This document shows positions 1,814 to 18,763 of a DNA stretch of 64,000 nt, one piece after another (position 1 is the first letter of the stretch; every line of letters starts with the position of its first letter). The notes under the pieces are model-generated. The model saw nothing but the letters and a program-made list of their open reading frames with translations, was not told the DNA's origin and made no database searches. Origin of the DNA: Lysinibacillus sp. (lineage in GTDB: Bacteria > Bacillota > Bacilli > Bacillales_A > Planococcaceae); assembly GCA_051874195.1 (NCBI GenBank), contig JBJEFP010000114.1:1760-65759 (forward strand), in the 5' to 3' direction. The translations under genes were made by a program, and so were the position numbers.

Positions 1814-3061
1814 CTATTTCAATGCCTGTACGGCACAGCAGATGGCATATTTTACGTGCTCATATGTCAAGCCGCCCTGGATGAATGCCGTGTACGGTGG
1901 GCGGATTGGGCCGTCAGCCGTCAGCTCGATGCTGGAGCCCTGGACGAATGTGCCCGCCGCCATGATGACGTCATCCGCATAGCCCGGCATGTAGGCAGGC
2001 TCGGGGGCGAAATGTGCATTGATCGGGGAGGCCGCCTGGATCTGTCTGCAGAATGCCACCATCTGTTCCGCCGTCTGGAACGATACGGATTGAATCAGGT
2101 CGGTACGCTGATCTGTATAGTGGGGGGCGGTCTTCATTCCTGCTTCCTCCAGCATGGCCGATGTGAAAATGGCACCCTTCAAGGCTTGCGCCACTGTATG
2201 CGGCGCCATGAAGAAGCCCTGGTAGAAGTCGGCCAGCGCATTCAATGACGCACCCGCTTCCGCCCCGATGCCAGGCGAGGTCATGCGGTAGGCGCATTTC
2301 TCAACGAGTGCAGCCCGTCCTGCGATGTATCCGCCGATTTTCGCCAGCCCGCCGCCCGGATTCTTGATGAGGGAGCCCGCCATTAAGTCGGCGCCCACCT
2401 CTGTCGGCTCCATTGCTTCTACAAATTCGCCATAGCAGTTGTCGACGAAGATGACGGCCTGGGGAGCGATTTCCCGGATGCGCTCCACCATGCCGGCAAT
2501 TTGTTCCACCGTGAATGACGGGCGCGTCGCATAGCCCTTCGAACGCTGGATTGCCACCATTTTCGTCTGTGCATCCACCGCCTGTTTGACGCCTTCCCAA
2601 TCGATTTCTTTATTCTCCAGTAAGTCGACATGGCTGTAGCGGATGCCGAAATCCTTCAGCGAGCCCGTATCCTTGTCCCCGCCGTCTACAATCGACTGCA
2701 ACGTATCGTACGGCTTGCCTGTAATGTAGACGAGCCCGTCTCCCGGCCGCAGCACGCCGAACAGGCTGAGGGTGATGGCGTGCGTGCCTGAAATGATTTG
2801 CGGGCGGACGATTGCCGCCTCGGCACCGAACACTTCGGCATACACCCGTTCCAGATTGTCACGCCCCTCATCGTCATAGCCGTAGCCGCTCGATGGATGC
2901 AGATGGTAGTCGCTCACCTGGTGCTTGCGGAAAGCTGAGAGCACCTTCTGCTGATTGAAGAACGCCATATCATCCGCCTTCTTATGCTGCGGACGGACAA
3001 GCGCCTCCACTTTTTCCGCCAGTGCCAATGTATCGTTTGTTAATATGGTCTGAAATGCCAT
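1814..3061 (-). CDS. ynbB: Methionine gamma-lyase / cystathionine beta-lyase family PLP enzyme (aluminium resistance protein family)
   Basis: 415 aa with GYGYDDEGRD, PQIISGTHA, DNCYGEF and GSLIKNPGGG motifs. Confidence 0.9.
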   Translation of the reverse strand: MAFQTILTNDTLALAEKVEALVRPQHKKADDMAFFNQQKVLSAFRKHQVSDYHLHPSSGYGYDDEGRDNLERVYAEVFGAEAAIVRPQIISGTHAITLSLFGVLRPGDGLVYITGKPYDTLQSIVDGGDKDTGSLKDFGIRYSHVDLLENKEIDWEGVKQAVDAQTKMVAIQRSKGYATRPSFTVEQIAGMVERIREIAPQAVIFVDNCYGEFVEAMEPTEVGADLMAGSLIKNPGGGLAKIGGYIAGRAALVEKCAYRMTSPGIGAEAGASLNALADFYQGFFMAPHTVAQALKGAIFTSAMLEEAGMKTAPHYTDQRTDLIQSVSFQTAEQMVAFCRQIQAASPINAHFAPEPAYMPGYADDVIMAAGTFVQGSSIELTADGPIRPPYTAFIQGGLTYEHVKYAICCAVQALK

Positions 3062-17236: not shown

Positions 17237-17581
17237 TTAGTGTAGAAATTGTCGATAGCCTTGTGTGTCATTTTTACGTAAAATTGTAAGAAATGTGACA
17301 GCGAGGCGCACGACCTGTCCCCAGTTCATGTGATAGCGCGCTTCAAACTCGAATTTCGGGAGGTGTATGACGTCCCTGAAAAGCTGCTGTGGCTCGATCT
17401 GCTCCTCCTTCAGGTAGGCGAGAAAGGCAAGGAACAGCTTATGATCCTCAACCTGCAGATGCTTCGATTCAATCAGTGCATCCAACCGTTCATCAAGCGA
17501 ATGCGCCTTCTGGAACAGCTTCTGGATATGTGCTTCTTCCTTTTCATTTTTATATTGAAGAAAATGTAGAATGTTTGTCAT
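17237..17581 (-). CDS. Hypothetical helical protein, 114 aa
   Basis: Clean ORF with AAAAAGGGG RBS; no family recognised. Confidence 0.7.
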   Translation of the reverse strand: MTNILHFLQYKNEKEEAHIQKLFQKAHSLDERLDALIESKHLQVEDHKLFLAFLAYLKEEQIEPQQLFRDVIHLPKFEFEARYHMNWGQVVRLAVTFLTILRKNDTQGYRQFLH

Positions 17582-17615
17582 GGAATCCGGCCCCTTTTTA
17601 TGGTTTTACACATCA

Positions 17616-17720
17616 ATTTCGCCAGATGAACGTTGAATTTCGCCAAATTCATTGTTTATTTCGCCAGCTTTTGGAATCATTTCGCCAAATCGCTGCTTAT
17701 TTTCGCCAAACATCTTCCGG
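17616..17720. repeat. Direct-repeat array: five copies of (A/T)TTTCGCCA at an exact 21-bp period with unrelated 12-nt spacers
   Basis: TTTCGCCA starts at 17617, 17638, 17659, 17680 and 17701. Confidence 0.95.
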
Positions 17721-18632
17721 GATGAGATACCGTCTTGATTTCGTATCGCCCTCATAGTGAAATTTTGCCCTCATTAATAATTTATTGGCAACGTCCTTGC
17801 TTGCGATGAAGAAAAAATCCCTCAGCGCTTTGCTTGTAATCCATTCATCGACAAGCAATCTGTAGTCATGCAGCCCTCTACAAAAGGCATCCCGCCCTGC
17901 ATTGCCGCAGCAGCAGACAAACTTTCCACGCCTGTACTGCATCACTTCCCCGCACAAGCACATGGCTCCCCTACGGATCAACAGCTTCCCAAATGGATGC
18001 TGCCATCTCCTTGGCTGATGATGTGCCAAAATTTCACTCTTTACTAACGATACCACACTTTCTGAAACTTGCACCGGATAAGTATTGTTCCATTCTTGCA
18101 GCTTGAACCGCAGCCCTGCCAATTTAAATATATGAAACCTTGCCGGCATATTTTCCAAAATCGAAGAAGAACTTGTGATAATAATGGCAGACAAAACCGG
18201 CAGCTTCACTCCGATGCCATCAAGCAGCCGTTTCACGAATGCCTCATGCCGCTCTGCCTGCGCAAACGGATTTGTCAGGCTCGTCCTCTCCCCATTCCAG
18301 TCACGAAGAAACTGATGCGACCTTTCCTCATAAGAAAGAACGCCTGCAATATTTTTCAGCTCCACAACCAGCACAAAGCGGGCCGTCACAAGGATGGTGT
18401 CGATCTGATGAGTATGTCCCAGGCTGCTTACCGCCTCGAAGCCATGCAGTAAAGCGTGAGGCTCTGTCATATGTAAATCTCCCCAATAAGCATCCGCCCG
18501 CTGCTCTCCCTCGTAGCCCCTTTCAGCCTTCCATAGCAGTTCATCGAGCACCTTTCTCTGCTCATCCGCGAGTATCCCTCGTCTCGCCAGCGCTTCCCCA
18601 ACAACCAATTTGGACGGAGGTCTCCTATCCAT
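17697..18632 (-). CDS. NERD (nuclease-related domain) protein with C-terminal Cys cluster and putative winged-helix
   Basis: GYEGE, HQIDTILVT...VVELKN, NPFAQ motifs; CLC...CCC cluster; start moved to MDRR behind AAAGGGGAG. Confidence 0.88.
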   Translation of the reverse strand: MDRRPPSKLVVGEALARRGILADEQRKVLDELLWKAERGYEGEQRADAYWGDLHMTEPHALLHGFEAVSSLGHTHQIDTILVTARFVLVVELKNIAGVLSYEERSHQFLRDWNGERTSLTNPFAQAERHEAFVKRLLDGIGVKLPVLSAIIITSSSSILENMPARFHIFKLAGLRFKLQEWNNTYPVQVSESVVSLVKSEILAHHQPRRWQHPFGKLLIRRGAMCLCGEVMQYRRGKFVCCCGNAGRDAFCRGLHDYRLLVDEWITSKALRDFFFIASKDVANKLLMRAKFHYEGDTKSRRYLIPEDVWRK

Positions 18633-18725
18633 GTCCATCTCCCCTTTTTGCCCATTGTAAAAAGAGACAGACGGAAACGCTATAGAATAGAAGAAAATTT
18701 TATTTTGGCAATGTTTCAAGATGAT

Positions 18726-18763
18726 AAAAACCCGCCATGCCGATAACCGGCATAGCGGGCTTT
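18726..18763 (-). terminator. Terminator of korAB
   Basis: cccgc-atgccg / cggcat-gcggg stem followed by TTTTT on the minus strand. Confidence 0.8.

Follow-up and report, generated by a model that had tools for sequence, protein, structure and literature searches.

Plasmid iterons and the Rep initiators that bind them (P1 RepA, F RepE, R6K pi, RK2 TrfA and pPS10 RepA) are among the closest described counterparts of the element reported here, since they too are direct repeats with a conserved core at a spacing of about two helical turns. Their arrays comprise 2 to 7 or more repeats and are read by winged-helix domains of an adjacently encoded protein, an arrangement that is predicted for the present locus as well. 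Plasmid initiators no longer bind iterons cooperatively once a pair of sites is offset by half a helical turn (PMC4980987). The locus analyzed here lies in a 64-kb stretch of a Lysinibacillus sp. genome (contig JBJEFP010000114.1; the whole 64,000-nucleotide stretch is referred to as the window), in which five 21-bp units on the minus strand (17616-17720) adjoin a gene of the NERD nuclease family. The exact 21-bp phase of these units, their adjacency to the NERD gene and the co-variation of their core with the NERD lineage were all observed. Sequence comparisons make it probable that the array is a set of five phased, iteron-like DNA sites for the winged helix of the neighboring NERD protein.

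On the forward strand the array contains five exact copies of TTTCGCCA, at 17617, 17638, 17659, 17680 and 17701, every step being 21 bp. The cores occupy 17617-17708 and are separated by spacers that are unlike one another. Read on the minus (coding) strand, the core is TGGCGAAA(T), and each unit consists of this core and a unique spacer of 12-13 nt. The NERD-proximal copy 1 (TGGCGAAAA, 17700-17708) lies within the NERD open reading frame (ORF), where it forms the last codons, W-R-K, ahead of the TAA stop at 17699-17697, and the array is therefore not purely intergenic. Copies 2 to 5 (each TGGCGAAAT) lie at 17679-17687, 17658-17666, 17637-17645 and 17616-17624, the last of them 35 nt upstream of the ATG of a gene for a 114-aa protein. 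The 9-mer ATTTCGCCA is common to four copies, and the fifth reads TTTTCGCCA.

This arrangement is far from what chance would produce. The window contains 14 occurrences of TTTCGCCA, against 4.07 ± 2.15 in shuffled sequences, and five of the 14 make up the array. A repeat search returned a single family, with spacings of 21, 21 and 21. A simple calculation gives an expectation of about 1e-14 for five 8-mers at a fixed spacing in DNA of this size. A purpose-built array detector, which accepts any 6-mer with at least four recurrences at any exact period of 12-33 bp, found this array and no other in the whole window. The first-pass annotation had described an invariant 8-9 bp repeat at an exact 21-bp period with unlike spacers, a description that the present analysis confirms. 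Its distinction from a slippage-type tandem repeat also holds: unit-to-unit identity is only ~58% (0.58) and is almost wholly due to the core, Tandem Repeats Finder makes no call at the array because the units have so little else in common, and the same five copies are found in four species. Neither of the marks of a slippage-type minisatellite, units alike over their whole length and an unstable copy number, is seen in the window clade; copy number does change in relatives.

To examine constraint on the array, four orthologous Lysinibacillus loci (the window, L001, L002 and L003) were compared. Each has five copies at 21 bp; TGGCGA is identical in 20/20 copies, and the spacers contain no insertions or deletions (indels). 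In the sole open frame, the spacers differ at codon positions 1, 2 and 3 at rates of 0.42, 0.34 and 0.47. For comparison, the 114-aa gene differs at 0.12, 0.05 and 0.31 of these positions, and the C-terminal part of NERD at 0.17, 0.09 and 0.39. The spacers thus drift at least as fast as the third codon positions of the flanking genes. The invariant bases include third codon positions, namely the T before GGC and the C of GGC (20/20), and the base preceding GGC is always T even though the codon that it ends varies (TTT, GCT, TCT, GTT, ATT). Because cores and spacing are invariant, third positions included, while the spacers drift at all codon positions, this comparison indicates that constraint acts at the nucleotide level, on the 8-9 nt motif and its spacing, and not on a peptide or on the spacer sequence. 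Conserved cores at a conserved 21-bp spacing with neutral spacers support the phased, iteron-like protein-binding array put forward in the first-pass annotation, binding itself being predicted.

The same annotation had offered a compact repeat/spacer guide or memory array as an alternative, and had proposed comparing spacers for turnover or polarized addition. Neither was seen: in all four species the spacers are orthologous and differ only by point substitutions, and the same five units occur in the same order, with no addition at one end and no indel. A spacer-acquiring memory array was rejected on these grounds.

The adjoining NERD-family gene (17697-18638, minus strand) starts at the ATG at 18638 or, more likely, at 18632. 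From Pfam searches, alignments and an AlphaFold (AF2) model, its product combines a PD-(D/E)xK nuclease core, a zinc ribbon and a winged helix. NERD (PF08378) is the sole Pfam domain found in the protein (E=6e-15; 56.1 bits against a gathering cut-off of 22.1). Residues E44, D79 and K94 are invariant in 65 aligned sequences and E92 is at least 90% conserved, giving the D...ExK motif. Since these proposed catalytic residues are conserved, the protein is probably an active enzyme. The full-length model (pLDDT 94.5) matches PD-(D/E)xK nucleases exclusively, with weak E-values: the R2 restriction-like endonuclease, Can2, Bax1, Nt.BspD6I and Holliday-junction resolvases.

The C-terminal 91 residues (17700-17972, minus strand) are modeled with similar confidence (pLDDT 93.9) as a four-cysteine zinc ribbon followed by a winged helix-turn-helix of three helices and two strands. 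From the model and alignment, SKDVANKLLMRA is proposed as the recognition helix. The best fold matches of this region include the DNA-bound winged helices of RbkR, BusR, MarR, IclR, BrxR, AspA, TubR and F93. The family comprises 916 clusters at 50% identity (E <= 1e-30) of proteins of ~310 aa, and ranges over Bacillales, including Metabacillus, Halobacillus, Rossellomorea and Tuberibacillus. Its members are named in databases merely as 'nuclease-related domain-containing protein'. Several paralogs may share a chromosome, as P0136 and P0182 do.

Many members of the family end in (V/I)WR(K/I/…). In the window clade and at loci L162 and L163, the W-R codons (TGG CGN) double as the first core copy, and because of this overlap the NERD C-terminus and the DNA motif must evolve together. 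Separately, membership of a defense system was considered and rejected, as searches of defense libraries gave only sub-threshold NERD-domain matches to the N-termini of PglW, MkoA and MAD6.

Arrays with a 21-bp period also adjoin NERD relatives in at least six other genomic contexts, and their cores are specific to the lineage. Locus L162, with the gene order of the window, carries five copies of GGCGGAA, L163 has four of TGGCGA(A/G)AC, and L169 has five degenerate copies of TGTCGGGA. Locus L164 (Mqo, NERD, adh_short) has four copies of TTTGACAGT followed by three of TTGACA(A/G)GAA. Locus L165, which follows polysaccharide genes, carries TCGATAAA four times upstream and five times downstream, and TCGATAAA likewise occurs on both sides at L167, L170 and L171 (ABC transporter, NERD, threonine dehydratase). 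The core is GGATAGA at L168 (FecCD, NERD, MarR), with five copies upstream and four downstream, and ~14 copies of TTG(A/G)C(T/C)ATTAT accompany L172 and L173 (SecG, NERD, enolase), where the core is TTGACTATTAT. Arrays are therefore two-sided at L165, L167, L168 and L170/L171; at L167, L168 and L170 the flanking arrays are in direct orientation with spacers common to both sides. Copy number varies between strains whose NERD protein is identical (6 versus 8 + 7). Throughout the 176 kb scanned (k=6, at least four copies), all arrays detected adjoin a NERD-family ORF and have a period of 21. The arrays of L169 and L172/L173, which are degenerate or composite, fall below the threshold of the detector and were found by eye and by relaxed or pattern searches.

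The protein varies together with the DNA. In an alignment, the third helix of the C-terminal helix-turn-helix differs between lineages in step with the core. The window core TGGCGAAA is paired with the helix SKDVANKLL, GGCGGAA with SADVANKIL (L162), TGTCGGGA with NEGLVNKIL (L169) and TTTGACAGT with SAHAANKIL (L164). Similarly, GGATAGA goes with SPNVAYRIL (L168) and TTGACTATTAT with SMYAASKIL (L172). The core TCGATAAA is found with the related helices SEKVVYYNL, SDKAAYYLL and SEKAVYYLL (L165, L167 and L170, respectively), and L165 and L167 have the same helix type and the same core in different contexts. For protein P0163, TCGATAAA was predicted from the helix and then found, although this is a weak test because the locus is orthologous to L167.

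Natural knock-outs provide further evidence. At L003, an in-frame deletion removes the nuclease core and leaves a 156-aa ORF with the zinc ribbon and winged helix (L003:1664-2134); the array there is intact (5/5). Locus L004 (L004:3500-3964) carries the deletion of L003 and, in addition, a frameshift and a stop; only two copies survive in its array, and one of these is mutated (TGGAGAAAT), a natural TGGCGA to TGGAGA change in the core. At L005, the NERD gene and three units have been lost, and the two remaining cores are degenerate. In this series, an intact DNA-binding part of the gene goes with an intact array, even without the nuclease core, and a broken or lost gene goes with a decayed one. 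Together with its distribution, this indicates that the array travels with the NERD family and not with the downstream gene. The first-pass annotation had named the NERD C-terminal domain as the candidate binder, and the same-period arrays of the relatives, the decay on gene loss and the winged-helix model all speak for that prediction.

Several additional features of the relatives were recorded. Downstream of NERD at L172 (L172:3057-3430; also at L173) there is a 103-bp higher-order repeat of four units with spacings of 21, 21, 21 and 40, which recurs more than 3 times and accounts for ~14 cores over ~400 bp. Locus L171 contains, between two downstream arrays (L171:2645-3020), the partial 3' end of a second NERD gene (...KKLKFEAIGENKNRKYIIPAKL*) with its hairpin and array repeated as well; the protein of L170 is identical to that of L171, and L170 has a single downstream array of 6 copies. 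A long hairpin (…GCGAC…ACTATCGGTGCGGTCAGATAGT…GTCGC…), which has no T-run, is conserved between the NERD stop and the downstream array in the TCGATAAA subfamily (L165:3925-3965, L167:3470-3500 and L170:2975-3015).

Searches beyond these chromosomes returned little. Among metagenome and viral contigs, the overly permissive pattern of three TGGCGAA at 21 bp matched 7-mer microsatellites and ordinary 21-bp tandem repeats, none of them beside a NERD homolog. The sole match of another kind was on the metagenome contigs L049 (182-230) and L125, which carry three TGGCGAAA cores 21 bp apart, the spacers between them being unlike; no NERD homolog is present on these short contigs. A search of viral contigs with the family profile gave no homolog, and plasmid and phage searches with the gene and two arrays gave only a distant gene homolog on a Bacillus thuringiensis plasmid.

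In the window, all local genes are on the minus strand, in the order 2-oxoacid:ferredoxin oxidoreductase alpha and beta, a terminator-like hairpin, NERD, the array, the 114-aa ORF, miaB and ymcA/ricA. The hairpin, read from the sequence with its T-run after the oxidoreductase beta gene (18726-18763, minus strand), precedes the promoter region of NERD itself, which makes NERD look like a separate transcription unit. The array occupies the entire gap from the end of NERD to the ribosome-binding site of the 114-aa gene. A promoter/terminator scan returned weak consensus matches only, none of which placed the promoter of the 114-aa gene, and found no intrinsic terminator between NERD and the array on the coding strand; the array is therefore probably transcribed. 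A search of sequencing runs of any kind found no run with more than 17% of the words of the locus. The opposite strand has a terminator-like hairpin and T-run at the edge of the array nearest NERD (17718-17737, plus strand); it is probably a chance match, because no plus-strand gene ends nearby.

The first gene past the array, a conserved gene for the 114-aa protein (17237-17581, minus strand), has no known domain: the protein has zero matches in Pfam, NCBIfam and PADLOC. The gene immediately precedes miaB in Lysinibacillus, Solibacillus and Caryophanon (71 homologs), and some homologs have N-terminal extensions and a precomputed PF08820 match. Homologs exist without NERD and without an array (L005, L006), indicating that the 114-aa gene is a neighbor of the array and not its partner.

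A mechanism can be proposed in which the winged helix is the reader and each winged helix would recognize one 8-9 bp core (TGGCGAAA). As 21 bp corresponds to two helical turns, bound copies would line up on a single face of the helix, could contact one another and would bind cooperatively; exact phasing is plausibly kept because the cooperativity of plasmid initiators depends on helical phase (PMC4980987). The 105 bp separating the NERD gene from 114-aa/miaB/ricA would then be coated with bound protein. Our best guess at the effect of the complex is cis control of the module itself. An upstream array may repress the promoter of NERD, and a downstream array may block read-through from the gene or tether the nuclease. 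At L170 the upstream array extends into the NERD -10 region and ribosome-binding site, which suggests autorepression at that locus. In the window, the complex may gate transcription from NERD into 114-aa/miaB/ricA, since no terminator follows NERD and the array spans the only path to these genes.

Several points weigh against assigning the array to the NERD winged helix in this way. The detector finds no array upstream of NERD in the window clade, and autorepression of the promoter therefore cannot be the role in the window. The winged-helix fold matches are weak (E >= 0.13, TM ~0.5). The helix alone may not set specificity, because those of L164 and L162 are similar (SAHAANKIL, SADVANKIL) while their cores are very different. 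The distant NERD homolog on the B. thuringiensis plasmid (26% identity) has no array. The sample is also narrow, consisting of ~10 loci, several of them orthologous and all from Lysinibacillus, Ureibacillus and relatives, whereas the family spans Bacillales. Finally, L163 has a premature stop inside the winged helix and yet retains four intact cores. This TAA lies between winged-helix helices 2 and 3 (L163:3001-3945, Lysinibacillus sp. KU-BSD001; annotated at 279 aa), and the remainder of the reading frame is intact; the stop may have arisen recently, making the gene a recent pseudogene, or may reflect a sequencing error.

Other explanations were weighed against binding by the NERD winged helix. 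On the coding strand, all five copies read TGGCGAA and match 7/7 positions of the published 7-bp Spo0A box, 5'-TGNCGAA-3' (PMC7643835), so that the array could be a five-site cluster through which Spo0A controls 114-aa/miaB/ricA. The host is a spore former, and RicA (YmcA; Pfam Com_YlbF) is encoded downstream. RicA feeds the Spo0A phosphorelay. The fit, five out of five in the window, is not shared by the orthologous and paralogous arrays: at L162, a sister-clade locus with the same gene order, GGCGGAA breaks the box at a fixed position, and the homologous NERD-side cores TCGATAAA, GGATAGA and TTGACTATTAT are unlike it. Several homologous arrays face convergent genes and for that reason cannot be promoter elements of a downstream gene. 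Moreover, the fate of the array follows NERD, since it decays upon NERD loss although the 114-aa and miaB genes, and presumably Spo0A, remain. Control by Spo0A is consequently very unlikely. The array might instead encode a peptide with an xGEIxxx heptad repeat, 21 bp being seven codons, from a mechanically called 49-aa ORF (17606-17755, minus strand) or from the ATG at 17713. The frame is open over the array in the window, L001 and L003, and public gene calls of 50-77 aa are placed over homologous arrays, namely 54 aa at L162 (L162:3926-4090), 77 and 71 aa at L171 (L171:2422-2655 and 2835-3050) and 50 aa at L173 (L173:2801-3056). However, the spacer codons vary about equally at their three positions, as fast as neighboring synonymous sites, and third codon positions are invariant while the residue before Gly varies. 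At L002 the ATG is missing and a TAA interrupts the frame after copy 1; a consistent start codon or ribosome-binding site is lacking; and over 16 arrays, stop-free frames are as common antisense as sense. The window ORF was judged not to be a gene, and a coding function for the array is extremely improbable. For annotation, the substitution pattern and the equally open antisense frames mean that small ORFs called across these arrays are probably spurious.

Another possibility is that the element acts as RNA, with UGGCGAAA repeats in the NERD 3' untranslated region, at the same time the leader of the 114-aa gene, binding an RNA-binding protein or serving as short guides. The probable transcription of the array, with no intrinsic terminator after NERD, would allow this, and all copies have one orientation relative to the gene. 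Folding of the array, however, is no better than that of shuffled controls (z = +0.69) and there is no credible Rfam match, so that the guide array of the first-pass annotation is left with no detectable RNA structure or RNA family. At four loci an array also precedes the NERD promoter and follows closely on the terminator of the previous gene, where sense transcription is unexpected. The strict 21-bp spacing better fits helical phasing on duplex DNA, and a record of targets cannot be kept in 12-13 nt spacers subject to drift by point mutation. There is thus very little chance that the array works as RNA. A further reading extends phased binding and does not exclude it: the winged helix would target the NERD nuclease to its own flanking arrays, and cutting or nicking there would drive duplication, gene conversion or movement of a selfish or mobile cassette. 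The module occupies many unrelated intergenic sites, several paralogs per genome are possible and the catalytic residues are conserved. The directly oriented flanking arrays with shared spacers (L167, L168, L170), the differing copy numbers of identical-protein strains (6 versus 8 + 7), the partial tandem duplicate of gene 3' end, hairpin and array at L171 and the 103-bp higher-order repeat at L172 would also fit. Against these stand the absence of visible target-site duplications, inverted ends, integrase or transposase, a gene GC content that matches the genome (0.49 versus 0.47), stable synteny across several species and, apart from one distant plasmid match, the lack of plasmid or phage homologs. 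Tandem repeats also recombine without a dedicated enzyme. A self-propagating cassette is therefore unlikely. The related proposal that the ~310-aa Bacillales family of NERD/zinc-ribbon/winged-helix proteins consists of chromosomal cassettes, each nuclease being addressed to private 21-bp arrays with a specificity of its own and a role beyond regulation, is tentative and on balance doubtful. If it were true, site-directed cutting might drive duplication or conversion of array and gene, making the module a new selfish element; alternatively, the array might hold a DNA-tethered store of nuclease for defense.

Phased sites for an adjacent winged-helix protein, the preferred reading, are a known kind of element. 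A literature search on NERD with repeats, iterons or a winged helix, and on 21-bp Lysinibacillus repeats, found no description of a link between such arrays and NERD. As far as could be checked, novelty lies in the partner being NERD, in paralogous modules on the chromosome and in cores that are private to a lineage while the period stays fixed. Binding to these arrays would offer a first testable handle on the widespread NERD family, because the sequence flanking each member's gene would point to the DNA target of that member. The loci would also form a natural series of matched protein/site pairs for studying how winged-helix specificity evolves.

The likeness of the array to CRISPR, with invariant repeats and unique spacers, is superficial. 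CRISPR repeats are ~23-55 bp long with spacers of similar size, whereas here a repeat of 8-9 bp and a spacer of 12-13 bp make up a unit of 21 bp. There are no cas genes, the neighbors being the oxidoreductase subunits, NERD, the 114-aa ORF, MiaB and YmcA, and the spacers of different species are orthologs separated by point mutations alone. The first-pass annotation was correct in considering the array too short for CRISPR and in noting the absence of cas genes. The REP/RAYT systems (REPtrons) share with NERD modules a single gene flanked by cognate short repeats whose sequence is specific to the gene lineage. REPs are palindromes that occur dispersed in hundreds of copies and are recognized by a tyrosine HUH transposase; the NERD repeats, in contrast, are direct, strictly phased and confined to the gene flanks in the ~176 kb examined.

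Centromere-like arrays (TubR-tubC, ParR-parC, AspA), bound by small adaptor proteins, are phased direct repeats beside the gene of their binder and are coated by many copies of it. The centromere binders TubR and AspA are among the fold matches of the NERD C-terminal domain, with scores that are weak and generic for winged helices. Unlike in these systems, no ParA, ParM or TubZ partition NTPase is encoded nearby, and the binder is fused to a nuclease. Among iteron systems, P1 repA and F repE are flanked by iteron groups, which recalls the two-sided arrays of L165, L167, L168 and L170. In contrast to iterons, the core is only 8-11 bp instead of 17-22 bp, and the locus is chromosomal, among housekeeping genes, with no plasmid relatives. 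DnaA boxes (up to 1 mismatch) are absent from the window locus and show no consistent pattern in seven other loci. An iteron-type plasmid origin was rejected for want of a Rep, DnaA boxes and a plasmid context, and the analogy to iterons was kept. In place of the WH1/WH2 domains of Rep, the partner here has a NERD PD-(D/E)xK nuclease, a zinc ribbon and one winged helix. Phased arrays with an adjacent winged-helix reader are thus familiar from plasmid origins and centromeres; in the present locus, the putative reader is fused to a PD-(D/E)xK nuclease.

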